NCBI GenBank assembly: GCA_020184695.1
Contig: JAANOX010000250.1
Span: 1 to 60,163, forward strand
Direction of reading: 5' to 3'
DNA length: 60,163 nucleotides
Origin: Histomonas meleagridis 2922-C6/04-290x
Lineage: Eukaryota > Protista > Parabasalia
This document shows, one piece after another, positions 2,351-47,111 of the stretch. Each line of letters opens with the position of its first letter. Within the stretch, counting starts at the first letter, position 1. A model generated the notes under the pieces. That model was not told the DNA's origin. It saw only the letters and a list, made by a program, of their open reading frames with translations, and did not search any database. Made by a program: the position numbers and the translations under genes.

Positions 2351-3750
2351 GGCTTTGATGCAAAACGCCCTCCATTTTGCGGTTTTTGAACGATAGGAAA
2401 TTTGAGGAAAAATAGAAATGCCACATTAGGGCACCCCATCCATCATCCTGACGGCCGGTTTCGATCGTTATCCATTGAAAAACTTATTTGATACATATTA
2501 ATATATATATTTTGACAGACAAAATATTTGACATAACGATAATATTCAAGTTATTAAATAAAATATATAAGATTTATTATAACGGTTATCGATAAAAATT
2601 TATTCATATTTTTTGTTTGTAAAGTAGTCAAAAAAAGTCGATCATATTGATGCAATTGCAATTCGAAACCATTAAGAAAGTGTCAAAATTAAATGACAAA
2701 AGCTTTATCAAATGGGCCTCTGAGCAGGGAATCATTCCTGATATCCACCAAATTCAAATATGTCCGAAATGTCAATCGTTAATGAAAGTTTATTTCTCAC
2801 CAAGTTACCCTGATGGTGCTGTATATAGATGCTGCTCAAGTAAATGCAGAAATTCAAAATCAATCAGATTAGATTCATGGGTATCACAATCAAAACTTTC
2901 ATTAAGGGGATTTGTTCACATTTTAGCATGTTGGGTAGAAGGTTTTGATATAAGAACTACATCTAAAATTACAGGTGTATGTGAACGATCAGTAATAACA
3001 AGGTTTCAAACTTTTCGATCTATTGCAGAAAAAGAATATCGAAAAGATATAGCTCAGAATTTACTTGGTGATGGAATAGTCGAAATTGATGAAAGTCATT
3101 TTTTCGGTGCTAAATACAACAAAGGAAGTGCATTGGAAAAAGAAGAAATTTGGGTTTTTGGCGAAATAGACAGTAAAACAATGAGAGTTGTTGCTGAGAT
3201 TTGCGAAAATAGATCGAAAGAAGTTCTCATTCCAATTATTTGTTCAACAGTTAGACCTAATTCAGAAATTTGGTCTGATGAATGGAAGCCATATAATACT
3301 CTTAGTGATTTAGGTTATGTACACAAAACAGTAAATCACTCAGAAAATTTTGTAGATTTAATTACTGAGGCAAATACTTACAAAATAGAAGGTACATGGA
3401 ATCTAATAAAAGGATACCTCATAAAAAATGGATTTAGAGATAGAAATTATCTCGAATCATATATCCATGAATGGTGCTTTCGAAGAAATATAGGAAATAC
3501 ATTTGAAAAATGCTGGAAAGCAATAATTGGTGAAATTTCTTAATAAACTAATCATAATTTAAAATATTTTTATTAGAAAAATGATTTCGAAGTGTATCAG
3601 ACTATCCAATAAGATATTTTGCCATTATTCACTTTTTGAAATGACTTTGATCTCTATATCAAAAGTCGAATATTTTTATTGCCACTTTTTTCCTTTCAAA
3701 TTTCCTATCGTTCAAAAACCGCAAAATGGAGGGCGTTATGCATTATAACC
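2351..3750 (+). mobile_element. Merlin (IS1595-family) DNA transposon, apparently complete
   Basis: GG...CC termini. ~65-bp imperfect TIRs with a shared core AACGCCCTCCATTTTGCGGTTTTTGAACGATAGGAAATTTGA. Exact 8-bp TSD ATATTTTA at 2343-2350 and 3751-3758. Confidence 0.92.
2647..3543 (+). CDS. Merlin/IS1595-type DDE transposase, intact ORF (298 aa)
   Basis: Zn-ribbon CPKC...YRCC, VEIDESHF, IWVFG, IWSDEWKPY, HKTVNHSENFVD, KIEGTW, YIHEWCFR. Confidence 0.92.
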   Translation: MMQLQFETIKKVSKLNDKSFIKWASEQGIIPDIHQIQICPKCQSLMKVYFSPSYPDGAVYRCCSSKCRNSKSIRLDSWVSQSKLSLRGFVHILACWVEGFDIRTTSKITGVCERSVITRFQTFRSIAEKEYRKDIAQNLLGDGIVEIDESHFFGAKYNKGSALEKEEIWVFGEIDSKTMRVVAEICENRSKEVLIPIICSTVRPNSEIWSDEWKPYNTLSDLGYVHKTVNHSENFVDLITEANTYKIEGTWNLIKGYLIKNGFRDRNYLESYIHEWCFRRNIGNTFEKCWKAIIGEIS

Positions 3751-5381: not shown

Positions 5382-5608
5382 TCGACTTAAAAATAAAAAC
5401 GAAGTTCCCACAATAGTGACGAGTTAGGAACTTGCTTATGACATGTTACATGAAAAACTTTAACTTTACAACATGTCAATTGAATACTTTATTAAAAAAA
5501 ATTAATTGAATGCTAAAAATTCCAACGGTTAGAAAATGTATGAGAAATCAATTATAAAATAAAATTTCAATTAAAAATAAACGTCAATGAATTAATATCA
5601 TTTTATCA

Positions 5609-6178
5609 ATGAAAGGTCAAGAAACAGTAAGAACGGAAGCAGAATTAAACCCGAGAAGTACAGTGTGGTTCGGCACAGTTAACAATTATTCACAACAACA
5701 GTATGAAGATATTCGAAGATTCTTAAGAGATGATTGCAAATACGGTATAGTGTGTAAGGAAATAGGACCAAATGAAGGAACACAACATTTACATTTTTAC
5801 TGCAGATTCAGGAACAGACATTATAAACAATCAGTGTATAGACTTATAGGATTCGAGGATTTCCATCTGGAACCCGCAAAATCAAGTGAAGGAAATTGTG
5901 TTGCATACTGTAGAAAGGATGGCAATTGGGCGGAGTTCGGCGATTTACCTGTGTACACAAGGAAGAAACTGGGAGATAATGAATATTATCAAAATTTAAT
6001 GCAAGATATCGAGAATTTAAATATAGACCAACTGGAAATCAAATACCCAAAACAAATGATAATTCACAGATCTCAGATAGAACGTGTTAGAAGGGACAAC
6101 ATGTTAACAACAGGTTACCAACTACTAGTTCCATCTGACCATTTTATGTGGAACAACAATCCTTGTTTTATGACATGA
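5609..6178 (+). pseudogene. rep: CRESS Rep, HUH endonuclease domain only (SF3 helicase lost)
   Basis: Motif I WFGTVNN, motif II TQHLHFY, motif III YCRK. No Walker A follows; the sequence switches to retroelement DNA at ~6110-6170. Confidence 0.88.
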
Positions 6179-7790
6179 TCGATGATAGCATTTACGTTGT
6201 ACTCCATATTAGTAAAATGACACTTTTATTATATTCTCCATTTTATTTTACTTCATGGGAAGATGGTGGAGCAGGACTGAAAGATTTAAATGATAGGAAT
6301 AATGATTAGATTAGTTCAAGTTTTCTAAAGTTATGGTTTTCGAAAGATATGTTACTAAGAGATTTATTTCGAACTTTATGTTGGGAAGAAAAATCGTTTA
6401 GATATAATAATGTCGAAGAAAACACAAATGATAACGATATTTTCTTAAATGTTTTCAACAAGGACATGAGAAAAAATACACCTGGAACTTCAAACCTTTT
6501 TAGCCGGGTAATTCATGCACTTGAAGATAACAATTTAATCTTAAACTTGAACTATCTACCCACAGATAATTTATTAAACCCAGATGACTCAGATATAGAT
6601 CCTTTCGAATTCAATGGAAATGAAATTGAACCAGACAATCCTGAAGAATATATTACATTAAAATTTCTAGATGTGAATGAAGTGTATTCATTCGATCAAA
6701 ATGAATTCCTAAACATTATGAACAATTATCACAAAAACTTCCATTATGCAAATTTGATTAAATTACCTCTTAGAGGTCATACCTTTAAAACCCTTTATAA
6801 ATCTAAATTATCTAATTATTTCATGAATGACTATAAATGTAAAATTAAAGATAATATAATTAAATTTAGTATACAAGCTAGAACTAATAGCTTCTATACT
6901 GGGCAACATCAAAGACTTGCTAACCATGATGAGAACATAGGTTTATGTCCTTATTGTGGTCAAATAAATTCCTTAAGACATAGATTAAATGATTGTAAAA
7001 CAGTTATTAATACATATAAGAAAAGACATGATGCAGTTATTAAAGAATTATGTGAAATGTTAAAAGCAAAACCTGGTAACAAACCAATTATTCACCTCGA
7101 CTCAACTATTAAAAATGTCCAAAATAATAATAATTTATTTGAAGGCGAGAACAGAAGATGTAAACCTGATATCTGGTACTGTAATAATCAGGGTTACACT
7201 TTAATCGAGGTAACAATTCCTTATGGAGATGTTGATGAGAATGACATTAATTCTTTAAATGAAAGATACGATCAGAAGAAAGATAAATATACAAGTTTAT
7301 GTAAGGATATCAAAGAACAATCCGGTCTAGAAGTCAACTATTATGTTATAGTCATTTCATCATTAGGCGCTTGGTTTAAACAAATCATTAGATGAATTGA
7401 GAACTCTTGCAGGTTCTAAAGATTTGTTTAAGAGATTTGCGAAGAGAATAACTGTAGCAACTTTAAGGGAATCACAACGACTAATTTATAATAATTTGGA
7501 TAATAATAATGGAATTATTGAATCACAATCAGAAGAAGAAGAATCCGAATCCGAGAGCATAGCGAACACGGACCAGTCTCTTACATCCGAAGGTTCAGGT
7601 GATGAAGTTCAAACAGATGAACTAAATGAGCTTTATGCAAATTTGGTGATTCTAAACTCAAGAGATCATTCTACTTCGGATGGTTCTCACTTAGAGAATG
7701 GCAACTCAGAAGCATACGTCATCACCAGATGATGAATAACTTAATTTGAACTTAATCTTAATTTCTTTTAAAGATAATTATAAATGAATA
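6170..7790 (+). mobile_element. 3' fragment of a site-specific-type non-LTR retrotransposon (REL endonuclease, R2/NeSL-like)
   Basis: RT-thumb remnant FYFTSWEDGGAGL, QARTNS, CCHC knuckle CPYC...HRLNDC, RHD, KPDIW, IEVTIPY, KKDKY, VISSLG. The RT core is absent. Confidence 0.85.
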
Positions 7791-9099
7791 AACCACACGG
7801 GAGGAGATTTTTTTTGATTTTTCATGAATATTAGTTTTTTGCAGCGGAGAACTTAATATTCGGATTCAGCTCCCCAAGGGCACTCGAATGATATAGTTTT
7901 TTCTGAATCGAAAATTGCATCAGATAATTTCAAGATTGATGATCCCTCAGACATAGAACAACCACGTTACATTGAAAGCCCTCTTCCAGAAGGTGAGGAA
8001 GAAGACCCAGAAATCGGAAATCGTGATGAAAATTTTTCTGATTTCGAAATCAGATTTGATGCGACTCAATCCTTACAACAAGAGATACTATCAGTACGAG
8101 ATATTCATCATGGTACTATTATACAACCGTGGGAAATTTGAATACTACTTTTTCATAAAGTGGAGGTACCATTCAATCATAATGGAGAATTTGAATAATA
8201 TGTAATTTGCATTCTGAAATCGGCTCTCAATTTGTTTTCTATAGAATTATAATTCAATTTCATATTGAATTATTTACAATTTTCGCTATGTTTTTTTTAA
8301 TAAAGATAAAATTTGGCAAATAGGGTGTGGAATGAATGCTGTAATATTTCATTTTCTGCTTTCTGATTTATGTTAATTCTCACTTATATGTGCTAACTCT
8401 CATTTATTTTAATTTATTTTCACTTATACATGTTCATTATCAACTATATGTGTTTATTTTTATTTATTTTATGTACCAACATCTGCTCAAATCATTCAAA
8501 TATAATTTGGCAAATATATATTTTGAACGACCTTCATTTGATATAGATAATACATAGTGAACATGTGGTTTAGTTATAGATGAATTCAAACTTATTCTGA
8601 TATCAGAAATGGAGCTCATATGATTAATTATATTCAAAAAGTTTATAAATCAATGTTTACATTATTATTTCAATGAGCAATTGATTTATTTATTTCCATC
8701 AAACCTCCACAAAACATCGTATATTTTTTTCTATTTATTTTAATTGCTTTGATCGTCGTAAAAATTAATTAAATTTTATACAATTTTAAATTGATAAATC
8801 GTAATTAATATGTAGAACATGACAATTCATAAAAATTTATATGCGAAGCAATTGATATTATGAATCAATATATAAAATATTGATTAAGTCATAAATGAAT
8901 TTTAATGTAACATTGATATAAAATTTGTGTTGTAATTTAGATACGGTAGGTATATAATGCATCACTTTTCACAAAAATTTATAAAAAACCTCGCATAATC
9001 AACATGAATTGTCCCCGGTTATGTTTGGCCGACCATTCATTATATTAATTTTATCTTTGGCCGAACAAATATCTTGCTTGGACGCATAGCAAACTTATT

Positions 9100-9620
9100 T
9101 CAAAAGAACCAATGGTCAGCATACACAATTTTTAAAATGACACTTCATTACTTCACTCTCTACTACGAATGCTGAGTTCTATTCAGTTACAAAAATTGCT
9201 GATTTTCTTAAAGTGAAAGACCCAGATGCTGTAGCAGTAGTCATATTTTTCGTACCAAAAGATGATAAATTAGGCAATTTCAACAATTTTATTATTAAAC
9301 CAATTGGTATGATTATCATAAACATAAAAATTTTCAAGATTTTTATTTTGTTCATATAGAGTTGATCGGATTCTTCTAACAAAGAAATATCAAAGTATCA
9401 ATACCAATAACTGATAACAAATAGCCACCACTTACTAATAATATTCATTATTTAGAGAGTCATTCAATTCAATTAGAAAGTAATTTCGGAAGATGGTATC
9501 AATCATTTCTGTATGAATCAAAGAACGATGAAGTTAATAATATACTTATTTCACATAGAATACCTGATAATCATGAATTCCAATCAGTATTTGACATGAA
9601 TTCTATCGATCGCGATAGTT
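9100..9620 (+). pseudogene. Unknown element-A protein (YSV.KIADFLK.KDPDAVAV..F.PK), decayed
   Basis: Homologous DNA at ~45360..45880 and a diverged homolog at ~41070..41230 (YSIAQIGDNIEDKDPAAIVVALFFDPK). Confidence 0.5.
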
Positions 9621-9861
9621 TTAAAGCTCTAGTTTGAATAAAAAGGTTAATCACTTCATTTTTTTAATGTCTGATAATGAATTTCCTTTTACATTTGATT
9701 TCTATGATGATGATTATTTTAATAATTTTATCACTTCACCTGTTAACATTGCTCAAAACAATGCGAAAAAGACAATTTATGTTAATAATGTTTTTTCTTC
9801 ATTATGGTCAGTAGAACAAATAGTCAAAGAATTAAATAAACAAAGAAATAATGTTTATTTT

Positions 9862-10068
9862 TTATTTATTTTCTTTTTCATAAGGTATAACATATATTTC
9901 ACTATTTTGTCGTAAAGCTGAAAATGGTATTGGTTTCTCAAATATAATTGCATTCGTAAATGACACCCTTATCTGTTTTTCTATATCTTTTAAATTTGTA
10001 ATTTCAGAAATATCTAACCTATTTTTGTTATAATAGGTTTCTATAACCTCAAATTTATAATTAGACAT
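9862..10068 (-). CDS. Small unknown element-A protein (68 aa)
   Basis: Open in element A and at 46463..46669; a diverged paralog at 46103..46324 shares the C-terminus RQNS.IYVIPYEKENK. Confidence 0.55.
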   Translation of the reverse strand: MSNYKFEVIETYYNKNRLDISEITNLKDIEKQIRVSFTNAIIFEKPIPFSALRQNSEIYVIPYEKENK

Positions 10069-10105
10069 AAATAAAAATGATTTAAATTATATTAAATTAC
10101 AATGA

Positions 10106-10188
10106 ATTTTTGAAACTAAACTATGACAAATGGGACGTAGGCGTCCTTTAAGGACGCCTGGGATTTGGCATAGTTTAGTTTCAAAAAT
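10106..10188. other. Internal palindrome of element A (20-bp perfect outer arms, AGGCGTCCTT-T-AAGGACGCCT core)
   Basis: Arms at 10106-10125 and 10169-10188 read as exact reverse complements. Confidence 0.9.
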
Positions 10189-10219
10189 CCAAAACAATAT
10201 ATATATAAATAATATTTTA

Positions 10220-10489
10220 TTATTTCTTTTGACCAACTGATGCATTTGCTACACCATCTATAACAGGTGAGAATTTATCTGCTATTTTAATTCCTTTTGC
10301 AATAGCACCTGCATGACCAGGTAAATTTTCAATTCCAGGTATTTTACCTACTGTATTTACAACAGGTTTAGCTACTTTATTCCATACATTACCAATAAAT
10401 CTACCAACTGGTTTAATAATTTTATCTCTGAAGTAAGCACCTGCTTTTTTAAATTCATTTTTAATTTTGTTCCAAAAACCCCACGCCAT
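10220..10489 (-). CDS. Basic amphipathic-helix protein (89 aa), candidate membrane-lytic virion protein
   Basis: MAWGFWNKIKNEFKKAGAYFRDKIIKPVGRFIGNVWNKVAKPV. Conserved open copy at 46822..47091. Confidence 0.65.
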   Translation of the reverse strand: MAWGFWNKIKNEFKKAGAYFRDKIIKPVGRFIGNVWNKVAKPVVNTVGKIPGIENLPGHAGAIAKGIKIADKFSPVIDGVANASVGQKK

Positions 10490-10604
10490 AAATAATAATA
10501 AAAATAAATTATTAATTCTTTTTTTATTGATAAAATATATAATGTATCTTATCATTCGCTTCATTACCTATATTTTTACTAATATTTTTAAACAATAAGA
10601 TTAT

Positions 10605-10807
10605 TTAATCATCGGTTTCAAATATTTTATCCACAGGTGACTTTTTAAGAGGTTTAATTTTTTTAATGTTTTCTTTATGTTGTTTCGCAAATTCATAATT
10701 TTTCACAATATGAGGACTAATTTTTGTGAATCCTTCTTTCATTTTATTAAGGAAAGGTCCTTTTTTTTTTTACCTGATTTAAATTTGTTCCACAAACCCC
10801 ACGCCAT
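10605..10807 (-). pseudogene. Second W-G-(F/L)-W-N-K paralog, frameshifted in an A-run
   Basis: MAWGLWNKFKSGKK...; an open relative lies at 47112..47342 (MDGGFWNKIKKGLNKF). Confidence 0.5.
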
Positions 10808-10841
10808 TAAAAATTATGAAAAATATTTTTCATTTTTATTA
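10808..10841. promoter_or_regulatory. Bidirectional Inr-type promoter between divergent genes
   Basis: Only 34 bp separate the two ATGs. The 18-bp palindrome ATGAAAAATATTTTTCAT (10816-10833) gives TCAT(T/A) on both strands. Confidence 0.55.
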
Positions 10842-12469
10842 ATGTATTATAATAATACGCAATCTAAAAATGAAAAAGATGATCAAGGTAATGTTGGTGC
10901 TTATTTTGATCGTCTTAAAGATTTAATTGCTAAAAATGATGGTACTCGTTCTTTTATTTTAAGAACTGAAGATTGTCATGATCAAAATGCACCTTTTAAT
11001 CAATCACAAGAAACTAGATTAAGAATCACTCATGGTGATCATATGGTTTCACAAATAACTGAAGGTTTTATTAATTTTAAAATTAGAATAACTGTACAAT
11101 TATCAAAAGCTATTTCATCTAGTAATTTACAAGATCCTGAGAATTTAGCTAAAATATTTATAGGTTTTAAGAGTTCTAATCAATTATTAGATCAATGACA
11201 AATTATGTCTAATAATATTTCTACTGGTTATCAACAAAATGAATGTTGTCGTGAAGGTTATTGTTATTCTACAATTAAACCTTATGCTGAAAAAAAAAAC
11301 TAGAAAATATACACATTCTTTATATGAAAAATGTTTCAGAATATTCTCAATCTGTTTGTGGTGCTTATGTTGATTTAAATACAATTGATGATGGAAATAA
11401 ACATGATATCGAATTTGAAATGAATCTTCCATTTGAAGATATATTAGCTTTACAAGCATTTGATTTATATCCGAATAGATTAGTTGGTGATATTGAATTA
11501 AAGTTTTATGTTAAACAAAATGGTTTAGTATGGTGTCAAGTAGATCCACGTAAAATTAAAGAAGTTAAAGAATTTTTAGAAGATTCTTCTATTAATGCTA
11601 CATTTAATAATTTACCTTTATTTACTCATGGTTTTACTCAAATAGGTAATTCTGCTAATATAACTACTACATTTAAATGTGATACTGAAACTAATCATAC
11701 TATTGATACTGCAACTGAGAATGTTTCTTTATATTGTACAGGTTTAACAGTAGTTTCATGTAAATCTAATATGTTTGGATTTGGAGTTAAAGAAGAAACT
11801 TTAAATAAAATAGCTCAAATACTTCAACAACCTGGAGGTTTAATAATTCCTTCACAACAATTAGATTATAATGCATTTGTCTTAGCTGCTACTGAATCTG
11901 GTATACAATCTACTATTAATATGCCTTTATTTAATGTTACAACTATTACAGTTGTATTTCCAAAACATGCTAATGATTATACTTGTTTTGATAATCCTAT
12001 TTATAATAATGTACAATTAACTATTGCAGGGCAAAATTATCCCGATGAACCTATTTCTACTTTAGGTGCAAGATTTTTACAATATCAATTAGTTGCTTCT
12101 GATTTAGATGGTGGTATACAATGTACTAAAGAATTTGAAGATTCTTTAACTATGGACAGAAATGCTTCTAATGGTACTAGATATAATAATACATTAAGTG
12201 ATGCTACTTCTTTTATGCTTAATATACAATGTGAACGTTCACGTGGTGGTTACGTATTTGATGGTTTAGATTCTAACGGTCAAAATATACCAATACAAAT
12301 TAAGGGGCAGCCTATATATACTCAAGCTAATGATACTTATTATAATGTAGATGATGCTGGAAATCATCCACCTCCTCCACAATTATTTATATGTCGTGAT
12401 ACTTATTTCACATTAGATTTACATAATGGATTGAAATATTATGCTAATGGTACTCCTGATGGTTATTAA
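10842..12469 (+). pseudogene. Putative major capsid protein (~540 codons), one nonsense and two +1 frameshifts
   Basis: Largest structural-looking gene, beta-strand-rich, beside a packaging ATPase. Lesions were located by comparison with the copy at 47378..48530. The fold is not verifiable by eye. Confidence 0.55.
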
Positions 12470-12659
12470 ATAAAAAGTAATTATTCAAAAAAATCATCAT
12501 ATTATCATAAATTGAATAAATGTGCAATGATTTAAAGAAATTATCATATAATCATATATTAAATAAACGTAAAATGATTTAAAAAACATCATAATAGCTT
12601 TAAATAAAACATTATATTTGTATAGTTTATAATGATGTACACTAAATTCATTTGTTCAA

Positions 12660-12879
12660 ATGGAAAGAGAGTACCCTGTCTCATTCATTCTCGACCACTA
12701 TTTCCGCATGGAAGTAACACACGAAGTCCTTTACTTCGTATTGCTATGGAAAGATGGATCATTCACAGCCAAAAGAATGTCTGAACAATTGCGATGTTTT
12801 TCTCAGCAATTATATTGATAAACTGATCAGACTCAACAAATGGGATCAGGTTGAAGCAATAATCCGATATCTACAATAA
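12660..12879 (+). pseudogene. Chromodomain-like small protein, frameshifted
   Basis: MEREYPVSFILDHYFRMEVTHEVLYFVLLWKDGS, paralogous to 44697..44927; Inr TCATTT just upstream. Confidence 0.6.
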
Positions 12880-13596
12880 ACAATTCCCAACAACAATTTT
12901 TTTTTATCACATTTTAGCAAAGATAAAAAACTGATAAGTCCATATTGATATAAAATATTGTTTTTCAATTAAATCAAACTTTTTGAGTACATCAGATGAG
13001 ATTTTTTAATATTTATAATTCTTATGACTTTCGTATGATTTATCAATTGTACCCTCAAATATTTTTTGTTTGAATAGTTTACTCGTATATTAAATGATTG
13101 ATTGATCGGTATATCATTACTTCATTAATCATTATACAGTGATGACGGTCCGTAAACCATTCAATTCCACTTTTAATAGCCAACGGCGACTACAATTCAC
13201 AGATTAAGGATACTCCAAAATTGCACGTTAATTTGCAACCTCACTGTATCGTACGATCATAAAATTGAATTACAATAATGTAATTTTCTGATAGATTAAG
13301 CCACACTGACTTTTTGAACTGAATAATGACTGTACTATCAAATATTTTTCGTTTGAATAGTTTACTGATCGTTTTACATGATCTCGATAAATTGATTTAT
13401 ATCTTAAGTTAGTACATAACTGTAAAAATCGAATCTATCGTTTATTCAAAAGTGTGAAAATACGATCGAAATCAATTAATTTTTTTAACACTGATCCCCT
13501 GTCCATAAAAATCACATAAAAAATCATTGTACATTTATTCATTCAAATGTGTCAGTTTTCGAACGTTAGAAAATATTAATGACATTAAGTTTTTAT

Positions 13597-13971
13597 TTAT
13601 AAAACATTTTGAGATTGATCATTTTGATTTTGAGGCATTATTGAGTAAGCATAATTTTGTAAAACATTCAATTTATCTACATAAGCATTATATTTATTTA
13701 AATCATTATTAAATATTTGATTTAATAATTCCATTTTAGATATTTGATAAGCTTGATCTAATTGTTCAGGTGTTATATTTTGTAAAGGATTTTTAATAGT
13801 AGGATGATATTTTTCATCTATAAATTTATAAATTTGTTTTCTTAATAAATTATGATATTTATTATATACAGTTACAGTTAATGTTATTACATTTTTCATT
13901 TTTTTAACAATAGAAAACGAAGGTTTAATATTTATAGCAGTAAAAATCACAATCTTTAAATTCTTGAGCAA
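13597..13971 (-). CDS. Unknown element-A protein
   Basis: Near-identical C-terminal ~95 aa are open at 42113..42403 (+). Confidence 0.55.
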   Translation of the reverse strand: MLKNLKIVIFTAINIKPSFSIVKKMKNVITLTVTVYNKYHNLLRKQIYKFIDEKYHPTIKNPLQNITPEQLDQAYQISKMELLNQIFNNDLNKYNAYVDKLNVLQNYAYSIMPQNQNDQSQNVL

Positions 13972-14070
13972 AGCATGTATAAAGAGCTTCCATTAATAAT
14001 AATGAATTGATTTTTATAAAATTATTTTTATTTTGGAGAAAACGATATTAATATTGATGTCATAGATAAT

Positions 14071-14835
14071 ATGATTGCTTATTGTTTATATAAAAATAAA
14101 CCTAAATTAAATGAAGAATTAATAAGTGAAATTCATCCAGTGGTGAATGTACCTTATAATTCTTTAAATATAGCATTAGGTAGAAAAAGAAGTGGGAAAA
14201 CTCAATGTATAATTAGAGGAATTATTAAAATTAGTAATATTAGTCCTAGAACTCATTTATTAATTTATATTAATAAAAACGGATTAAAAAATGATCCTAC
14301 ATTTGAATCATTAAAACCGCTAATAAAGATTACAATATTATATGTAGCTGAAAATCAAGCAGAAGATATAGTTAAAGATATATTAAAATGGAAACAATTT
14401 TATAATGAAATTAAAAATAATCATTGGGAAAATAAAATAGTAGATAATCAAATAACTGAATTATTTCAAAAATTATATATTAATAATTATAATAATTTAA
14501 CTATACATACTATAATATTTTTTGAAGATTGTGCTAATAGTCCTTTATTTAAAAAACCTACTAATTATTTTAATCAATTATTTACTAAATTAGCTCATAT
14601 TCAATGTTCTGTATTTTTCGCTGTACAATTTTGGAAATCTTTACCTGCTGAAGTTGAAGCTAATGTAAGTACTATATTTATATTTCCTAATTTCTCTAAG
14701 CAACAATTAAGTTAAATGTTAGCTCAAATACCATTGTCTTATACTAAAGATCAAATTTATTCAGTTTATCAAAAACTGTCAGGACATCAAAAAATGATCG
14801 TCGACGTGAATAATCAAAAAATAAAAATTGAATAA
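14071..14835 (+). pseudogene. A32/FtsK-HerA-like genome packaging ATPase, premature TAA at 14713-14715
   Basis: Walker A LGRKRSGKT, Walker B IIFFED, motif C KLAHIQCSVFFAVQ. The frame continues 39 codons past the stop to TAA 14833-14835. Confidence 0.8.
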
Positions 14836-14865
14836 AAAATGATAAAATAAAATTCATTTTTTTTA

Positions 14866-16176
14866 ATGTCATATAAAGAAAAAGGTATTGATAATGAATT
14901 AGCTACTTATCTCAATGTTCTTGGGTCGATATGGGTGCTGCTATTGAAAAATTAAAACAATTGCGAAATCAACAAAGCATTAAAACTATAAATGAACTCA
15001 ATAAACAAATAAACATCTGGCGAACACAAAAAACATCTGATATAGATGAGAATACTTTATGGGACGATATATTGACATATTTACAAAATATTGGACATCC
15101 ATTCTTTTATGAATTATCATTATTTCATCCAGATGTAGAAAAGGAGGACGCTCTTAAAGATCAAACAGAAAATGAAGAAGATCATTTTTCATCAATGCAA
15201 CCAACAGTAACTACCGAAGACATTAAACCAATTTTGTCTACCGAAATTCCACCATCGGGTTATGAAAAAATGGTTGGAAAATATCAAAAAAAAGAACAAA
15301 TACTAAAGGTTTACCATTACCTTTAAGACCTCATGAATATAAAATTAGAACTCCTGATGGTAAAATGTATGATTTTATAGAAGATAAATCAAAATATAAA
15401 TATACTGGAGGAAGTAATGTTATATTGGATGAAAATATGGATACATTAGCTCATCTTATTCTTGATTTGAAGAAAGATGTTTGTAAATGGATGGACAGTT
15501 AAACAACATGACCCCTATGAAAGACAATATATAAGATTTTTACAACAAAGATATGGTAGTCCACAAAATAGAAAATTTTTGAGAGCAAAAGGTCAACATA
15601 TAGAGGATTTCGATGAATTTATGGATAAATATGTAAGAAAAGTTTCATATGATGATAATAAGCCATTTGATGATCCTAGGGTAGAACCTACCCCAGAAGG
15701 TAGACAAATTATGGATACTGTTGATAAATTTAATTTAAAGTATTATCAAGATACAGGTGTTAGAGATGTTTATAAAAACACACAAACCAAGAAGGAGAAC
15801 AGCAAATCAAGTGTTTACTAGATATGTTATTAAGCCAATTTATAATGATTATCTTAAAGATTATCAAAAGAATAATGCTGATGATGAACAACTTCCTGTA
15901 AAGTTAGCTATGATTAAAAGAATGTTTTCAATACTTAGTGTATCTGCTAAATTTTATAATGACATTATAAAAACAAGAATGAATAAGATATTGGCAGGTC
16001 AGAATATTAAAGATGAGAAAACAGCTAAGAAATATATTAGAGAAGATACAGGAGAAAATTATTGGACAAGCGCTTCAAAGCAAGCAGTTTCTGAGATTTT
16101 ACTAGATAAGAATAAATTTGCAGATGGTAAATCATCATTATATAAATATATTAACACTAAACGTGGTTTCGAATAA
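14866..16176 (+). pseudogene. Single long unknown gene (~430 codons) broken into the listed ORFs 14931, 15477 and 15757
   Basis: Inr plus ATG at 14866. The bridge frame PLPLRPHEYKIRTPDG...DLKKDVCK*WTVKQHD links the pieces. No polymerase or helicase motif seen. Confidence 0.5.
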
Positions 16177-16202
16177 AAAATTTTTAAAATCATTATTTTT
16201 TT

Positions 16203-16724
16203 ATGATCAAAATAAGTGATTTCTCACCCCATGTAGGGAAGAATAATACTGAACATAATAGTTCTAGTGCTAATTGTAAAGTTATTATTAATAATAACAA
16301 TAGTGAAACACCAGCACATTATCCTGAAGTTAATGAAGAAACAAAAAAAATAATTACAAGAGAAACTGAACTTAATACTGATAATGCTAGTGCTTTATAT
16401 AAACATATAGCTTTAACATTTAGTGCAATATTAAAAACAAATAATATGAAATTAATAGCAAATTTAATTGATAATAGTGGAAAAATTATTATTAATGCTA
16501 ATGATTTAGTACAAGCTATAAGTTTAATTTTCTGAATGAATTTTAATCAAGTTAGATTAAGTTATGAAGATCCTGAACCTGGATGTTTAAAACATGTAAA
16601 TCCAATTAAAAAAGTTAACTCAATTAAGATTAATGGTTATGATTTTAGTTCTCAATATAATAAAGAATATAACACATTAATGGATGAATTTAATATATAA
16701 TTAGAAAAAGTATTTATTTATTAA
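16203..16724 (+). pseudogene. Unknown element-A protein, premature stops
   Basis: Intact 173-aa paralog at 41235..41756 (-). Confidence 0.6.
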
Positions 16725-17916
16725 AATTAATATGATAAGGCACAGGATTCAATAAATATCTTGGTACTGACATTTTTATACCTTTTTCATTATTATAAAT
16801 ATTATATTTACCTTTTTCGAAATTATCTACTATAAAAATATCTGGTAATATTTTTGATCTCTTTTTTAATTGATCTGTGTTATAAACTGTTACTGTTGTA
16901 CCAGGAGGTAAATAAAATCCTTCTTGATTTATAATTTTATCATTTAATTTATGTAACTCTAAACCAAAAGATTTTCTTTGATTAAAAGCTTCTATTGGTG
17001 AAATTTTTTTGTGATTTAATTGACTTAATGTTTTATGATAAGAATTATTATAATTACCGACAATTTTCTTCATATGATATGGATCTATTTCTTTTAAACC
17101 CATATTATCAGCCATATCTCTAATAGTTCTACAAATTCTATTTATTATAGCTAAAGAAGTATGAATAGGATAAGATTTATCTTCTAAAATTATTCTTTTT
17201 ACTGAAATTATTTTTACACCAGATAAATGTGCTACTATATATTGTAAAGGTTTCGATAAAAATGATTTTTCAGAATCACAATGTATAATTTTAGGATTAA
17301 ATCCTGCATTATATAAATTAAATAAAGCTTTAGCTATAGATTCTATTGATTTCTTTGTAGTTATTTTATCATTTATTTTTGTATTAGTATAGGCATAAAA
17401 TAAAAATCTAGACCTAATTTCAACTGCTAATAAATAACAATATTTTGTTTCTGTTTTAGTGGTTTCATCATAACCAGAAAAAAATAAATCCATTTGATAT
17501 TCACCTTTATTACCAATATATTTTAATTGGTATTTTTTATTTCTTATATAAGGAAAATAATTTATATTAGGTTTAAATTGAGGATCTAATTTTGAATAAT
17601 CAATATGATATGGAAGTAAATAGTTATCAAATAAATATTTGTTTTTCGAACGAGATTTAAAAACTGTGTTAATATAAGGTGAATTCTTAGAATCTTCATA
17701 TATATTATAATTACTATATATATTGTCATAAGGAAATTTACTAAAATATTGTAACAAATAATTACTATAAGCAGAATCGAATGTAAATACGTTCCCAATT
17801 TTATTATCAATTATTTCAATATCATATAAATATTTCCTTAATTCTTCACAATATTTATTAAATTTGAGAGGCTTTTTTTTAGCTTCAAAAACTCTACGTT
17901 CTATCATCTCATTCAA
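16714..17916 (-). CDS. Retroviral-type (rve) integrase of the Polinton c-integrase type
   Basis: GEYQMDLFF, YLLAVEIRSRF, IIHCDSEKSF, HTSLAIINRICRTIRD, YNNSYHKT. The frame extends upstream past a stop toward ~18300. Confidence 0.85.
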   Translation of the reverse strand: MNEMIERRVFEAKKKPLKFNKYCEELRKYLYDIEIIDNKIGNVFTFDSAYSNYLLQYFSKFPYDNIYSNYNIYEDSKNSPYINTVFKSRSKNKYLFDNYLLPYHIDYSKLDPQFKPNINYFPYIRNKKYQLKYIGNKGEYQMDLFFSGYDETTKTETKYCYLLAVEIRSRFLFYAYTNTKINDKITTKKSIESIAKALFNLYNAGFNPKIIHCDSEKSFLSKPLQYIVAHLSGVKIISVKRIILEDKSYPIHTSLAIINRICRTIRDMADNMGLKEIDPYHMKKIVGNYNNSYHKTLSQLNHKKISPIEAFNQRKSFGLELHKLNDKIINQEGFYLPPGTTVTVYNTDQLKKRSKILPDIFIVDNFEKGKYNIYNNEKGIKMSVPRYLLNPVPYHINFNK

Positions 17917-18993
17917 TTTTTTGATAATCGTTCTAATATAATATGTATAATGCTCTGGGATTGTTTTTCGTCCAGTTTTCCCATTAATAGGTGTAATTTT
18001 TTCAGTTTTGATAAAAAGTTTAATAAAATTATATTCAAATTGCTTATAATCGTCAAATTGTTTATTTTTGAATTGATTATCTGTTATTTAATCTAAGCTG
18101 ATATCTATATAATAATTAACTAAATTGTTGTATGTTTCAACTAATGGCTTTGTACCAGTATTAAATTCAGGTGTAAAATTAGACTCCCTATTATATTTTT
18201 CATTCAAAAAATTAATAAAATTTTTAAGACTCAAATTACCTTTTAATTGTGAATTTTGATTTTTTAATTTATTTTTAACTATTGTTTTCGATTAATATTG
18301 CATTTCTCTCTTTCTTTTATAAATTGGATTTATATAAAATGTAATAAAATATTTTTTTATTCTTTAAATACACTTAATAAATGTTCATCTATTTTACCTG
18401 TTACTTTACCAACTATTGAATTTAATATTTTAGTAGTTATTACTAAATCATCTGATAATTTATTACCATCAAATAATACTACATCACCAATTTCATAATC
18501 TGCAGTATTATTTACTTTAAAATGAAAATCTCCACGTGTAGCAAAATCAATAGTATCTTGTAAAATTTCTACTTTTTTTTTAATAACATCACCTATTGAA
18601 GCTTTATAACCAGTTTCATGTTTAGCTACACATATACCTAAATATTCTTTATATGTTCCTGATGTTTTAACTGATGGTATACAATCTGTTGTCGATGTAT
18701 TTGAAGTATATATACCATTTTCTTTCAGTGAAAAAACATTACCTGTTAAAAATACTGGTAAACCAATTTGAAATTGTGTTAAATCTTCTGAAACAGGAGC
18801 ATTATGAATAATAGTTGTATTTATTTGTGCAAGACCTCCAGTTCCTTCAAATGTATTAAATGTAGTTGCGATATAATATATTGCACTATATGTATAGACT
18901 CTAAACCAGTGAATTGACCAGTATCGGATTTTATATTTCCTGTATTAACAATGCCATTAGTGTTTACAGAGTACATAATTTCACTACAAACTA

Positions 18994-21321
18994 TTGGGTG
19001 TCCGGATAAATTTTAGTATCTTAATATCAGAAAATGCTACAGACAAAATTTTTATAGTAAAGTATACTTTACTCAATGTAATCACCCCCATTATCAATAC
19101 AGGCTTGGAGTCTCCTTTCTTATTCTCCAAAGACGGATTCAAGTTCATCTCTTGTGATCTTCTCCAATATTGACTTAATTGCCTCAAAGAGTTCATCATG
19201 ATTCTGAACCTTTTAATTCATTTTTATCTTTTTCAAAAAACCGTTAGCATTCTTTTTGGTGTTGAAATAATACTTCTAGGTCTTGTAAAAGGTTATTGAT
19301 CAGGCTGGAGCCATTGAATTTCAAAATCTTCTGTAAAATAAAACCAGCTCTCATCACCTGTTAAGAAGTACTTCCAAGATTGGTGACGTGCCTGTTGAAT
19401 AATTTCCAAAAGTTGTTTTGACTTATCAATACGTTGTAATTTTTGTTCATAAGAAAGTGTGTGGGGAACGAACCTTAAATGCTTCACAACAAATCCCATT
19501 TTGCGGAGATAATCATGGATTGTACTTTTTGGGATTCTTAAAGTTGTGCTCAATGTTCTGACACTGTGAAATGGCATTTGTTCTAATTGATCACAAATTA
19601 TAGGGTCAATAAAATTATCTGTAGATAAACCGCTACCAGTTTTCTTACCAGAATGTTTTGGCCTAATAACAATTTTCTACACCAATCTGTTATTGTGCTA
19701 TAGTGAACATTATTTTCATTAAAGTTTTTACAACATTTCTTATATATATCATTTGGCTTCAAATTTTTGCTGTACCAATATATGACGAGATGTTTCATAT
19801 GATCACTCATTTTAAAAATGAAAATTTGAACGTATTTTAAAAATAAACAAATTTTGTATCATTATTTTTACTATAACTCATAAACCAAATAAAAATAAGA
19901 TCCAATATTTATAGGGTGTTCCACCCCAACTGTTATATCTCACTCATTTTTTAAGTTTTTTTTAAATTTATTAATAAAAATGAAATGTTTATTAAATATA
20001 CTCTCCATTTGTTTCGATGACTTTTTTAAGTCTTTTTTCCCATTCGTCAAAAACGCTTTGCAATACATCTTTCGGTATATTTAATAATATTGAAGTCACT
20101 TTTTCTTCAACCTCTTCTCTACTCTCATATTGAAATCCTTCCATTTTTACTTTTACATACCCAAATAGGAAAAAATCTGAAGGAGCTATATCTGGGGAGT
20201 AGGGGGGATGAGGTGCCCTTTTGAGCTTGTTGGAGTCCATATATAAAGTTGTGAATCTCGACGTATGCGGTTTTGCATTGTCGGCATGTACAGCAATTTT
20301 TCTTGTGTCCTTTTTAAAGTTTGTACCATTCTTTCTGGAAAGTTTTGATAAAATATATTTTACATAATATTGTGAATTAAATGTTTCTCCCTTTGAAAGA
20401 AGAAAGTCAATAACTTTAAATCCGTGGCAATGTAAAAAAACCGTCAACATTACTTTTTTTTTGCGTAATATTCCTTTTGCTTATTGTATCTCGTGGTGTT
20501 CCTAGTGGTATCCATTGTCGAACATAATAATAATCATAATAATACCAGGACTCGTCACTCGTTATAAAATATTTATAACTGTTATGTCTTGCAATCTCTA
20601 ATGTCTTTAATAGTTGAATTGATTTGATGACTCTTTGTTTTTTAATATCTTCCCTCAGTAAATGTGGAACCCACTTTAAAAGTTTATTTTCATAGCCAAG
20701 CTTTTCAGTAAGATGCCTATATACAGTAGTGTTTGGAATCTCTGTTAACTTAGCTATTTGTCTTATTGAAGCATATGGAAATTTATCTAAAATTTCCAAA
20801 ATTTTTAAATCAACATTATCGTCAATAGGGGTAATCGGTTCACTAATGTTAGGTGACATTGTTTGATTAAAACTTCTTTGTCTGAGGTATTTACATACTG
20901 TTGAATATGAAATACATTCTTCGCCCAATATGATCTCCATTTCGGTATGAATCGCTTTTGCTGACATTCCCTTCATCGCGAGATATATTGTGATTGATTT
21001 TTGATCAAGCTCCATAATGGAGGGGTAAAAATTTTAAACGTCATTTTTTTTGCATTCAATTAAAAAAAAAAAACGATTATTAGTTAATGATAGACTTGAA
21101 AAAAATTATTTTTACATAAAAAACGAAACCCATTAAATTTAGTGTTTTTATTTATATAAAAAATATAATTGTATCTATTCTATATAAGAAGATACTACGG
21201 TAGGGGTGGAACACCCTATAAAATAAAATATCACATACATTTAATGTATTTATATTTAAAATATTAAAAAATATTATGATTCAGCACAAACGCTGATACT
21301 AAAATTTATCCGGACACCCTA
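18994..21321 (-). mobile_element. mariner-like transposon (outer), deleted
   Basis: TIR T(T/A)GGGTGTCCGGATAAATTTTAGTATC at both ends, TA TSD. Transposase fragments 19293..19810 contain FLTGDESWF. Confidence 0.88.
19912..21218 (-). mobile_element. mariner (D,D,D) transposon (inner), full length with one frameshift
   Basis: TIR TAGGGTGTTCCACCCC, TA TSD. ORFs 20416..21015 and 19992..20450 carry ITSDESW, HADNA and YSPDIAPSD. Confidence 0.92.
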
Positions 21322-22463
21322 TATTTTATTACAACCTATTGCATCAAAAAATGAGGAGTTATGAAAACCATTTCCTTGTTTTGGTTTAAATGATATATCA
21401 TCTTCAATACATTGTATTCTTCAACTATAATCATTTTCATATCCATCACTAGTATGCATATATATATAAGGACCTGTTTCTAAAACACCATCGTTTTTAA
21501 TAACTGCAATTGAGAGAACACTAATATTTAAATTTGAATCTGAAGGAGATGAATCTAAAGCAAAACCATTAATTGTTGAACAATGGATATCTTCTGTATT
21601 TGAACCTATAGGAATATCTGTTAAATCATTATAACTATGTGTATGATTTGTTGCAGCATATTTTGTATCATGATTATGATCTTTTGAAGCATACTCAGTA
21701 TGTGTATGTTCTGAGGGTGGAAATTTTTCAGGTTTATCAGTTAAATCGTTATAACTATGAGTATGATCTGAAGGTGGAAGTGTTGCAGGTTTATCATTTA
21801 AATCATTATAACTATGTGTATGTTCTGATGAAGCATAATTTGTATGTTCATGATCTTTTTTAGCATAAATCTCATCATGATTATGATCATTTAAAGATAT
21901 CTTAGATGTATCTAAATTATTAATAGTTGTACATATAATATTACCATTACTTCCAAAACTTAATAATGAACCAGTTTTTGATTTAAAATCTAATGAATTA
22001 GTATTAGCAGTTATTCTCCATGTATTATCTTTATCATAATCTGCATTATTATGCATATCAATATATTGACCAACTTCTACAACACCATCTTCTTTTAATG
22101 TAATAATAGATGGTACATATAATTTTGTATCCCATTTACCACCTTCTGCAGTTGATAATTGAAAACCATTTAATGAAGTAACTTGTACATTCCCATTTAC
22201 TGTTAAATCATTATTTATTGTATTATGAGTATGACTTTTGGTAGAATATTTTTCATCTGATTGCGATTTATTATAATATAATTGAGGTAATGTAATCGAA
22301 GTTATAGTATTAAGTTTTTCTGTTATTTGATCATTTGTTGGATAATTTGCTAAAACTTCTTCTAAATCATCTTTATCAATGATTTCAGAAGCTTCAACAA
22401 CATTAGTTTTTATACCTTTCATAGCATTCTCAATACTAAACATTGTTAAAAAATGATTTTTAT

Positions 22464-22790
22464 TTAATAAATTAATAATAATTCTAACATAAAATATTCT
22501 GGTTCAATTTCTTTACCATTCATTTCTTTAAACCATATTTTAAAATTTGGTTTTCTACTTTTATATTCATATTTCTTATATTTAGTTCTATTTTCATTCG
22601 TATAAATACAAAAATAATCTTCATAATGATCACGTTCAATAAAATCAGCATGCATTGAAACATCAGATACTAAATAATCCTTAAATTTACACTTACATTG
22701 CTGTACTACAATATATCTAGTAGGATTTTGAGAATCCACAAATTCAGGCGGAAAACGGTTTTTTTTTGCGAAGTACAAAAATACGTTTTT
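22464..22790 (-). CDS. Small unknown element-A protein (~100 aa)
   Basis: FPPEFVDSQNPTRYIVVQQC...MHADFIERDHY...FMLELLLIY. The 5' part of the listed ORF is TIR sequence; the true start is uncertain. Confidence 0.5.
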   Translation of the reverse strand, partial: KNVFLYFAKKNRFPPEFVDSQNPTRYIVVQQCKCKFKDYLVSDVSMHADFIERDHYEDYFCIYTNENRTKYKKYEYKSRKPNFKIWFKEMNGKEIEPEYFMLELLLIY

Positions 22791-22989
22791 CAGACGAATT
22801 GTATGGCTCACAAAAATCATTTTGATTTTTGTAGCGAGCGGAGCGAGCACACTCGGGGGATTGAAGGGGTCTGAGGCCTCCGGAGGTGTCCTAAGACCCC
22901 GTAAATCCCCCCAGTGAAAACTTATAGTCATGACAATCCCAGGGACCCTAGGAGCCATGGGATTGTCCCGACCGCATTATATACCTACC
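22787..22989 (-). repeat. Right TIR of element A (~200 bp) with two GC-rich hairpins and GCTC repeats
   Basis: The reverse complement matches 45050..45132, 40626..40790 and 60057..60163. Confidence 0.85.
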
Positions 22990-23229
22990 AGACACGATTA
23001 AATATTGTACGATATCTTAATTCTTGATTGTGATTTAGTTTGATATATAATAATTGTTTCTTTTGATTCATCTCAATTAATGCAATGTATGATGTATACA
23101 ATGTCTATAACTTGCTGCTATATAATGATATATGTTTCAGCATCTGTGCTAAATTTTATTTTTGTTCAAAAAACATGGCGAAAATTGTAAATTGTTCAAA
23201 ATGAAATTGAATTAAAATATTTTTTCAGA

Positions 23230-26580: not shown

Positions 26581-27059
26581 TTGGTTTATAATTTTGATGA
26601 TGATTTATATTATATAATATTAAATATAATATAAAATATAATATTGGATATAATATTAGATATAATATTTGATATATAGTTAAATATAATGTTATTCATA
26701 ATGTTGAATACAATGTAATATCCAATGTCATTAATGATGTTTTTCATCATTTGATTATATATCTACTAAATATATTATATAATGATCATATGTTATAATA
26801 CTAATAGTAAATATGTACATATAATTAATTAATACGAATTATCATATAGAAATATAAACATGTATAAAATAAATGTATAAAATAGAAAATTTTTAATGAA
26901 TCATAATAATATATATTTTAATGCTAACAGGAAAAAGTATTGAATTTTTTGCAATTTTTTAGCGATTCTCACATTTGTAGTTGTTAGTTAATGTTTTATC
27001 ATTTCATCATTTATATCATTTTAATTTGCAACATGAAAGTTATTAGTTCTTACATTATA

Positions 27060-27530
27060 TTTTGCTTGAATTTGTATTTTTTTGCTTCCGAAAATTTCCA
27101 TTCTACTTTCTAGTATTAGTTTATTATTCAGTTGTGCCTCTTTATTTGTGAGCATTATGACCATACCTTATTTCTTGTCTCCACCAACAAAGGAATCAAT
27201 TGCAATTATTTTAGAGTTCATTTTCCCTTTAATGAATCTCTTTTTTGATGCTTCTTCAACATCAGATTTTAATCTTTCATCATCTTTATGTTGACGTATA
27301 GATTCTAAAATATTAATAAATTGAATTTCATTAGGATTTTGTCTCATTAATATATTTAATTCCCAAATGATAAAACCATTAAATATTTCACTCTCATTAA
27401 ATTGTTGAAGAAATTCAAGAAAATCATCTGGAGCTCGTGTTACTGATGGAACTTGAGCTAAATCTCCAAATAATAAAATTGTTTTACCACTTAAACGATG
27501 ATTTGTAACATAACTTTTTAATTGCGACAT
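27060..27530 (-). pseudogene. PIF1-family helicase fragment
   Basis: GKTILLFGDLAQVPSV and ELNILMRQ; aligns by eye with 43057..44004 (NIRQHKD, AIDFFVGGD). Confidence 0.75.
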
Positions 27531-28724
27531 AACTTTCCTTCAACCATGATATAATGTTGGCATTGTTCAATAAATTTTCAATTTCATACGTATTTACATG
27601 AAGATGTTTCTATTCCTTTTTTACATCTAGATAAAGTACATTGATGGATCATTGTTGTAGTAACTAAGTTATATAAATTCGGTGCAAATAAAGGGGGAAT
27701 TAATGCATAGAAATTTTTCGGAATTTGATCTAATGTTAATCTATATTTATTTTCTCTTCAACTTTTTTGACTTCAGGCCATTTATTTACAAATGTAAATG
27801 TTACCATTAAGTCAGAGATACTGACTTGAATTTAATTTTAAATTTGATTGAATTTTTTTTTTTTTCTCAAGCTTTGTAACACGGGACTTTTTCTGATGAG
27901 ATTTGAATGGTTTATTTCCACTTTTGTATACTTCCATAAGACTATGTCAGGAAAACGCGACTTTTTATATAATTTATTTCGGTTAAGCTCACTTGTCAAT
28001 TATTCAAATATTTATTCATAATGCCCGAATATTTATTTCCAATTATTATAAAATAATGATGATTTTTGGTTTTCGTTTTCTATGAATTTGTTTCCCTCAG
28101 GCAATTTGAATTGATCTAACATATTTTGTTTTCATTTTTTGATATGGTACAGAAAATTTCGATAAACCTAATACATCAATTCATTTTAAAGTGATGCATA
28201 TTATATGTTATCATTCCATGATGCAACTATTATTTATCACGCAAACAACAAGTGCATCATATAATTCAGGGTGTAAATATCAAAAGCAAAAAATGCGGGA
28301 AATCTATGAAATTTCATACAAAGAAATTTCAAATGTTCGACTACAATGTGCTGTTTCTCTGTATTTTCATTCAAAAATATCCAAAGTGAAATCAGATCTG
28401 ACAATTCCTAATTATTTTTGCATGTTTTTGTGCGAATTTCACAATTATCACCAAAGCCAATATTTCAAATGCATCTCAACATTATGTTTCTCACTGGTTT
28501 CAGAACTCAAATGGTAAACGAAAATATTTCAGAAATCAGAAATTCTTTATCTGGATTCGTTCAGGTAGAAGAAAGTTTGTTACGAAAAGAAAAAATGATG
28601 TCTGAAGGGTTGTAGACAGGGATGGGCGTTCGGCGAATGCGATAGCGATAGAGGTGGACTTTTTTATTTCAATATCAAAGCATCCCGACGAGCTGCTGCA
28701 AACCTGGCAGTAGTAACATCAATA

Positions 28725-41234: not shown

Positions 41235-41756
41235 TTAATAAATAAATACTTTTTCTGATGATATATTAAATTCATCCATTAATGTGTTATATTCTTTATT
41301 ATATTGAGAATTAAAATCATAGCCATTAATCTTAATTGAGTTAACTTTTTTAATTGGATTTACATGTTTTAAACATCCAGGTTCAGGATCTTCATAACTT
41401 AATCTAACTTGATTAAAATCAATTTCTAGAATTAAACTTATAGCTTGTATTAAATCATTAGCATTAATAATAATTTTTCCACTATTATCAATTAAATTTG
41501 CTATTAATTTTATATTATTTGTTTTTAATATCGCACTTAATGTTAAAGCTATATGTTTATATTTAGCACTTGCATTATCAATATTAAGTTCAGTTTCTCT
41601 TGTAATTATTTTTGGTGTTTCTTCATTAACTTCAGGATACTGTGCTGGTGTTTCACTATTGTTATTATTAATTATAACTTTACAATTAGCACTAGAACTA
41701 TTATGTTCAGTATTATTCTTCCCTACATGGGGTGAGAAATCACTTATTTTAATCAT
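41235..41756 (-). CDS. Unknown element protein, intact (173 aa)
   Basis: Paralog of 16203..16724. Confidence 0.65.
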   Translation of the reverse strand: MIKISDFSPHVGKNNTEHNSSSANCKVIINNNNSETPAQYPEVNEETPKIITRETELNIDNASAKYKHIALTLSAILKTNNIKLIANLIDNSGKIIINANDLIQAISLILEIDFNQVRLSYEDPEPGCLKHVNPIKKVNSIKINGYDFNSQYNKEYNTLMDEFNISSEKVFIY

Positions 41757-42112
41757 AAAAAAATAATAATGATTTTAATTTTTTATTTAATTATTCACTC
41801 CGTATCCAGTAACTTCTTTTATATAAGCACCGATAGCATCTTTGATAGTATTTTGTTCACCATTCTTATCTTCTATCATTTCGATAACAGCTTTTTTACA
41901 ATCACTAGTATAATAATTTTCACCAGTTTCTTCCATAACAAACTTTTTATCTTCATCAAATTTATTTTGTAATCCATATGGAAATTAATGAAAATTGAAT
42001 ATTATATAAGAACATTGAGATAAGTAGCTAATTCATTATTTATACCCCTTTCTTTATATGACATTAAAAAAAATGAATTTTATTTTATCATTTTTTATTC
42101 AATTTCTATTTT

Positions 42113-46795: not shown

Positions 46796-46821
46796 ACAAT
46801 ATATATATAAATAATATTTTA

Positions 46822-47091: not shown

Positions 47092-47111
47092 AAATAATAA
47101 TAAAAATAAAT

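Follow-up and report, generated by a model that had tools for sequence, protein, structure and literature searches.

Polintons, or Mavericks, are integrating elements that combine protein-primed replication from their terminal inverted repeats (TIRs) with insertion by a DDE integrase and packaging by an ATPase (PMC6431247; bioRxiv 10.1101/2023.08.22.554363; these and the papers cited below are drawn on through the portions of each source available to us). A Metamonada (MMN) capsid group of Maverick-Polintons was defined by Bellas et al. (2023; PMC10120064), who counted 72 (38+34) and 61 (25+36) capsid genes, in two clusters, in two assemblies of Histomonas meleagridis, and who reported many endogenous viral elements (EVEs) without a detectable polymerase; Metamonada elements are left ungrouped in another survey (bioRxiv 10.64898/2026.06.19.733378). 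In Trichomonas vaginalis, 3,551 Maverick integrase genes are annotated against 1,491 genes for the protein-primed polymerase pPolB (PMC7845603 Table 2), and fragmentary and fused copies are common (PMC7845603). Partial Polintons have also been described in C. elegans (bioRxiv 10.1101/2024.01.15.575659). Here we analyse a window of 60,163 nucleotides, positions 1 to 60,163 of contig JAANOX010000250.1 from H. meleagridis 2922-C6/04-290x, in which one such element, here called A, lies at 8945-22989 and is accompanied by further, rearranged copies.

We conclude that A is probably a decayed and inert deletion derivative of a pPolB-bearing Polinton of the Metamonada group. A first-pass annotation, made from the letters of the window alone, had weighed a polymerase-free family against a deletion derivative. 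The second option is the better supported, by relatives with pPolB, by five broken genes and by deletion joints in sequencing reads; the first no longer leads, because the clades flanking the Histomonas elements carry pPolB, a gene of A that might have replaced the polymerase (gene X) occurs together with it, and both A and copy B are broken.

Ends, capsid module and broken genes of element A

The span of A is 14,045 bp, which comes to 11.7 kb after subtraction of a nested, TIR-bounded insert at 18996-21319 (Table 1). A 16-bp terminus is present exactly at 8945-8960 (+), at 22974-22989 (-) and at 40626-40641 (+), and with two mismatches at 60057; the expected count of the given 16-mer in the window is 3e-5. 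The hexanucleotides flanking A, AGATAC and AGACAC, are identical at 5/6 positions, an agreement that, at 5/6 or better, has a chance probability of ~0.007. Exact inverted ends and the target duplication together uphold the complete bounding of an ~11.7-kb element proposed in the first-pass annotation, and its remark that the left TIR is internally deleted holds as well: numbered by copy B's left end, base 16 is followed in A by about base 246. The full TIR, read from A's right end, is at least 203 bp long, with positions 122-203 showing 98% identity to a left-type end at 45052. Polintons are recognised by TIRs of 100-1500 bp and by a target-site duplication of 5-8 bp (typically 6 bp); the right end of A lies within the first range, its left copy being the deleted one, and the duplication within the second at 5/6 identity. 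A search of IMG/VR with the 16-bp terminus returned 21 exact matches, 0/21 of them with any element gene, and these were taken as chance. At 60057-60149, the third terminus variant is followed by a GC-rich hairpin with 37-bp arms at the window end, and the sequence inward of the 16-mer differs among the right end of A, the left end of B and the 60057 copy.

Canonical Polinton ends read AG..CT. Those of A read GG..CC, and A differs further in having no pPolB, detected protease, KilA or D5 primase gene, whereas it shares with the canonical elements (T. vaginalis Mavericks) TIRs longer than 100 bp, a 6-bp duplication, an integrase-like gene, an ATPase gene, and genes for both the major and the minor capsid protein. 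The earlier comparison with Polintons/Mavericks thus stands for the TIRs, the target duplication, the double jelly-roll capsid and the penton. A fragment of A's capsid matches, at 98-99% identity, proteins that carry the name Histomonas meleagridis.

The ~540-codon gene suspected from its size of encoding a double jelly-roll capsid belongs to that family, the fold having been modelled on a relative, P0015 (539 aa), which is 72-76% identical to A's capsid pieces. The P0015 model, built from an 81-row alignment, has a pLDDT of 93, and Foldseek matched it to the major capsid proteins of PBCV-1 (E 8e-13), an iridovirus, Sputnik and mavirus, with E values from 8e-13 to 1e-8. In A itself the gene is disrupted, first through an in-frame stop at 11196-11198 and then through a frame change near 11291-11297. 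At the opposite end of the element, the first codons of an open 118-aa frame lie within the TIR. The product's model, from 21 rows, reaches a pLDDT of 80; Foldseek gave it no match at E<=0.001, and VIA-align against 48,161 chains placed seven PRD1-lineage capsid chains at the top (Z 6.5-7.7; next row 5.2), among them the mavirus penton (Z 6.8, rmsd 3.0, 106 aligned residues). The penton suspected at 22464 is accordingly found as a single jelly-roll of penton type in the model, and we regard the product as a candidate penton-like minor capsid protein with moderate support, because all Z values are below 8. Past the capsid stop, the reads have a loose end that is absent from the window; its resemblance to the penton gene was no better than that of 22/60 shuffles, and this lead was dropped.

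Two further labels of the first-pass annotation stand in part. The frame called an rve integrase is open and keeps its two D motifs in 4/4 aligned rows, but its third acidic position is N in A and D in 3/3 relatives, and it has no Pfam, PHROG or PDB profile match; we call it integrase-like from motifs and synteny. The packaging ATPase retains Walker A and Walker B motifs in five aligned rows, yet it too is without a Pfam, PHROG or PDB profile match, is named from motifs and synteny only and ends in a premature stop, so that its packaging role is put forward as putative. The fibre gene proposed earlier is present as two fibre-like pieces: both match a single 615-aa fibre-like protein of the relative L001, whose PHROG matches are tail proteins, which indicates one gene split by nested transposons, and the 5' part is 99% identical to a Histomonas protein named 'tail fiber domain-containing'. 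The small basic MAWG protein may be a core or DNA-binding protein. The 173-codon gene has a weak match (pairwise E 8e-4) to an open reading frame (ORF) beside pPolB in another relative, L046.

Five genes of A are broken: those for the capsid, the ATPase, gene X, the 173-codon protein and the fibre. This, with a 1.1-kb non-coding gap after the capsid gene, contradicts the description of the gene set as compact with tight junctions.

The absent polymerase and its carriers among relatives

Searches for a replication enzyme found none between A's ends. tblastn of the L001 pPolB against the window gave no match (best E 0.04), and neither did 120 homologs or a hidden Markov model (HMM) built from them, a profile that does detect the polymerases of L001, L021 and L006. 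No trace of pPolB is detectable in the gap at 12470-13596. The superfamily 3 (SF3) helicase of L006 has no match in the window, the Pif1 (SF1) helicase matches in the window all fall outside A, and no primase was found in A; the scanned ORFs of A have no Pfam match to a maturation protease. The tblastn, HMM and Pfam scans thus agree with the first-pass statement that pPolB, primase, SF3/SF1 helicase and protease motifs are missing from A. Since the ORFs of L001 also have no protease match, that absence is not distinctive of A. Because no pPolB was found in the window, we file A as a Polinton derivative and not as an autonomous member.

The relatives consist of 41 metagenome loci (L001-L041) and five loci in binned genomes, 46 in total. 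Sequence of pPolB is present in 4/46 of these related capsid loci (L001, L006, L021 and L046), none of these loci being complete; the four are among the seven loci longer than 7 kb, the remaining loci ending earlier. They share with A the capsid, penton, fibre, integrase, ATPase, 131-aa, MAWG and X genes, and differ from it in carrying pPolB and in their gene order. In L001 the set comprises X, capsid, penton, fibre, integrase, ATPase, the 131-aa gene and pPolB, the last matching PF03175 at E 7e-40. A terminus of A's type was found in none of L001-L041. Genes of the relatives are mostly open frames, their order varies, and in the sister clade the penton gene follows the capsid gene. We set aside the possibility that the gene order of L001 had recently been inverted to give A: the penton start lies within the TIR shared with copies B and C, and L026, L036, L039 and L046 show other orders. 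Accessory genes among the relatives encode a dNMP kinase and an 897-aa coiled coil (both L002) and an SF3-type helicase (PF19263; L006).

Capsids of the sister clade are ~70-76% identical to that of A. In a capsid tree of 32 rows, rooted at the midpoint and with its deeper forks open, the four rows from Histomonas group together (99/94) and unite at 100/100 with the clade that holds L001, L006 and L021; L046 belongs to another clade (98/94). To either side of the Histomonas capsid clade there are therefore relatives with pPolB, and because of this the simplest reading is that the polymerase was lost on the line to A; the closest relatives being pPolB-bearing, the loss was likely by deletion. 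For a family that is polymerase-free by design, intact members across the lineage should be without replication genes; here the flanking clades have pPolB, and neither A nor B is intact.

Inspection of the site that corresponds to A's gap revealed pPolB in L021, directly by the 131-aa gene, and in L001, after four small ORFs. In L021 (5337-6503) only the first 388 pPolB codons are present, ending against the 131-aa gene, which reflects either polymerase erosion in a sister element at the corresponding site or a chimeric contig.

The relatives L001-L025, L027 and L042-L046 are found in gut metagenome contigs, with the P0015 capsid on 438 contigs, and five relative contigs were binned into bacterial genomes. 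Their host is likely a gut parabasalid. The Atlas, searched with pPolB, yielded nothing on the host, and no relative of P0015 was found in IMG/VR.

Another replication module might have taken the place of pPolB (gene X, the left-arm frame or a Pif1 helicase) and then been missed or lost in A. Replication modules of polinton-like viruses (PLVs) switch often (bioRxiv 10.64898/2026.06.19.733378), L006 has its SF3-type helicase, and copy B holds a Pif1 fragment beside the 131-aa gene. Full-length Histomonas copies of gene X (489 aa; P0422) have no Pfam, PHROG or Atlas match, and a query with gene X returned one match among 254 longer candidates. Homologs of X in L001, L006, L021 and L046 (E 4e-20 to 2e-7) stand alongside pPolB, so gene X is unlikely to replace the polymerase, and we set it aside as a cryptic replicase. 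The Pif1 fragment of copy B lies in a clean 1.65-kb insert, and a second Pif1 piece is situated outside any Polinton, at 26955-27539. A replacement of this kind is, in our judgement, improbable.

Copy B, further Histomonas copies and sequencing reads

Copy B (40626-48545) begins with a diverged left end, which is followed by a central block that is inverted and has deletions (A 16738 to 12524), a TIR without its first 121 bp, the left arm and a capsid gene minus ~150 internal codons; it is likely chimeric and inverted, as judged from its segment order. The integrase, fibre and penton genes and most of the ATPase gene are gone. Copy B had been cited as a second polymerase-less copy, and no pPolB remnant was indeed found in it; yet it is not intact, has lost most of its genes and carries a Pif1 (SF1) fragment within a nested insert. 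Being so rearranged, it lends weak support to a designed polymerase-free layout. The insert, at 42480-44130, sits cleanly within a run of T, its two flanks together forming an uninterrupted match to A, and includes a perfect hairpin with 34-bp arms (42570-42639) together with the C-terminal part of Pif1. We take it to be, possibly, a rolling-circle (Helitron-like) element.

Elsewhere in Histomonas, the two nearest clusters of capsid proteins contain 32 members, of which all 28 listed are partial (182-420 of 539 aa). Read contigs from four runs (at most two samples of one study, possibly the source sample) were placed on 12300-14100. Up to 28 lie on the capsid end, ~10-20 on the 131-aa gene and 2-7 on the gap at 12483-13275, the last mostly at the depth of a unique piece; the summed depth is no copy number. 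Within this 1.8-kb stretch, five deletion joints, at about single-copy depth in X1 and X2, skip 54-444 bases. Judging by this pattern, the majority of copies are unlike A in the gap region, and internal deletions are a frequent event.

Several observations weigh against descent of A by deletion from a polymerase-bearing parent. The gap, as noted, retains no recognisable remnant of pPolB. At 71-97% identity, A and B have in common the stretch without pPolB that adjoins the 131-aa gene, from which it follows that this layout was copied at least once, and another copy joins a capsid piece to an X piece with consecutive tags (GPJ56_010474/010475). Among 120 listed of 713 pPolB homologs, a search that covered proteins of 445-1418 aa and gave the names of representatives only, none is named Histomonas and one is from Tritrichomonas musculus. 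Finally, frameshifts in such multi-copy loci can be assembly errors (PMC10120064); the substitution stops and nested transposons of A are harder to explain in that way.

An alternative is that the whole Histomonas clade lost pPolB before expanding to tens of copies bounded by TIRs and target-site duplications, kept the capsid module (capsid, penton, fibre and ATPase) and the integrase, and was replicated in trans, either by the pPolB of a second Polinton family of the host or by a co-infecting gut giant virus. The lack of a Histomonas-named pPolB among the listed homologs and of a remnant in A or B fits such a satellite, as do the layout common to the two copies and the dozens of capsid genes in each of the two H. 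meleagridis clusters (PMC10120064). Egoviruses have been linked to Parabasalia (bioRxiv 10.1101/2024.03.23.586382), and a precedent exists in the VC40 PLVs, which are, like A, small capsid-encoding elements without a detectable replication gene (bioRxiv 10.64898/2026.06.19.733378). The VC40 elements have an NCLDV-like (nucleocytoplasmic large DNA virus) capsid and lack such genes as a group (same source), whereas A is decayed and its nearest relatives bear pPolB. The sister clade has the polymerase, the reads indicate that A may not represent its family, and, the listed copies being all fragmentary, a 3-kb pPolB gene would be expected to fall below the protein lengths searched. We consider helper dependence of the clade unlikely, while treating it as a serious alternative.

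It could also be supposed that the assembly has wrongly fused several copies into a chimeric A, with the absence of the polymerase an artefact. Multi-copy EVEs are often misassembled (PMC10120064), and no single read contig spans the whole 12300-14100 stretch. Nevertheless, stretches of 146, 212 and 490 bases in A's gap are reproduced exactly by read contigs (whose runs possibly stem from the source sample), a different contig encodes a Histomonas protein with the same fibre truncation as A, at 340 aa, and the two ends of A share a target-site duplication. We give this explanation very little credence.

If A is the deletion derivative that we favour, its ancestor would have replicated from the TIRs by protein priming, used the ATPase to load its DNA into a penton- and fibre-bearing double jelly-roll capsid, and integrated through a DDE integrase, with a 6-bp duplication as the result. 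Its pPolB would then have been removed by the internal deletions frequent in the family, either within A itself or within a parent element that enzymes supplied in trans had mobilised. A would have kept the cis-acting ends and most of the structural module, and stops, frameshifts and nested transposons would have accumulated after the loss. A itself is likely inert.

Feature map, surroundings and meaning

Table 1. Features of element A and its flanks, in window coordinates.
Feature	Position	Strand	Remarks
Target-site copies	8939..8944; 22990-22995	+ (left copy)	left AGATAC; right AGACAC
Left terminus	8945..8960	+	16 bp; ~230 bp of remaining left end gone relative to copy B
Broken left-arm reading frame(s)	9141..9915	+	~84% to copy B/C; no homolog found
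Small basic 'MAWG' protein	10220..10507	-	adjoins capsid gene also in relatives
Major capsid protein gene, double jelly-roll family	10842..12469	+	broken: in-frame stop and frameshifting
Non-coding gap	12470..13596	.	~1.1 kb, between capsid gene and 131-aa gene
Conserved ~131-aa gene	13597..13983	-	divergent from ATPase; 37% to L001 ORF
Walker A/B ATPase	14026..14835	+	61-67% to relatives; premature stop 14713-14715
Gene X	14866..16176	+	three frame changes; ~50 codons missing
Small 173-codon gene	16203..16724	+	two stops in A; open in copy B
Integrase-like open frame	16714..17907	-	D..D motifs; 30-37% to relatives
Fibre-like gene, 3' part	18357..18944	-	47% to residues 429-615 of 615-aa L001 protein
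Nested Tc1/mariner-type transposon	18996..21319	-	TIR pairs, transposase/helix-turn-helix Pfam matches; splits fibre gene
Second TIR element inside nested transposon	19912-21218		
Fibre-like gene, 5' part	21421..22443	-	His-rich repeats; 45% to L001 protein
Penton-like single jelly-roll protein (candidate)	22464-22820	-	118 aa, open frame; first codons within TIR
Right TIR	22787..22989	-	at least 203 bp; outermost part is the 16-bp terminus

The remainder of the window contains other mobile and host sequence. A TIR-bounded transposon of IS1595/Merlin type with an open transposase frame (PF12762, E 1e-19) lies at 2351-3750, and a CRESS-type Rep fragment (PF02407, E 1e-6) at 5591-7395 adjoins a frame that resembles, by eye, the end of a non-LTR (non-long terminal repeat) retroelement. 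A segment with a C-terminal motif like that of tyrosine recombinases (by eye) is duplicated at 95% identity at 1172-2005 and 49740-50584, the second copy sitting between inverted arms at 49387-49473 and 50555-50641. Host genes at 52621-55159 encode a CUE-domain protein, a Ras-like GTPase (by eye) and an initiator-binding-domain protein (PF10416, E 2.5e-15).

The closest described group is cluster MMPC_40 of the MMN group (PMC10120064), which has, like A, a metamonad host and a ~540-aa double jelly-roll capsid; the N-terminal motifs of the T. foetus capsid gene_7069 (Table S3 of the same paper) match those of A's capsid, by eye only. The rows and passages available from that paper give no element map, TIR sequence, penton or fibre for this Histomonas family; its locus maps are pictures, so that an earlier annotation is possible, and we found no element-level description in the literature. 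The available text of the Histomonas genome paper (PMC8529796) has 0 mentions of Maverick or Polinton, and 'Maverick' and 'integrase' are absent from its readable supplements; the accessible part of PMC13735942 likewise mentions neither Mavericks nor Polintons, and the PMC10748475 supplement has no Histomonas rows. Literature searches found only an IS481EU paper for Histomonas with Polinton, and none for Polinton with Dientamoeba and gut.

As a single decayed copy, A matters little, its capsid genes having been counted already and polymerase-less Mavericks being common in parabasalids. What is new is the gene map of a poorly described clade of Metamonada Polintons, with a 118-aa penton-like protein, a fibre and gene X, together with TIRs of at least 203 bp that end in GG..CC and pPolB-bearing sisters in gut metagenomes whose frames are mostly open. 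Should the whole Histomonas clade prove to be without pPolB, it would offer a paired case, with and without the polymerase at ~73% capsid identity, for the study of helper dependence in Polintons; and if the clade were indeed replicated as a satellite, it would represent a Polinton turned helper-dependent virus, with its pPolB-bearing sisters as the control.

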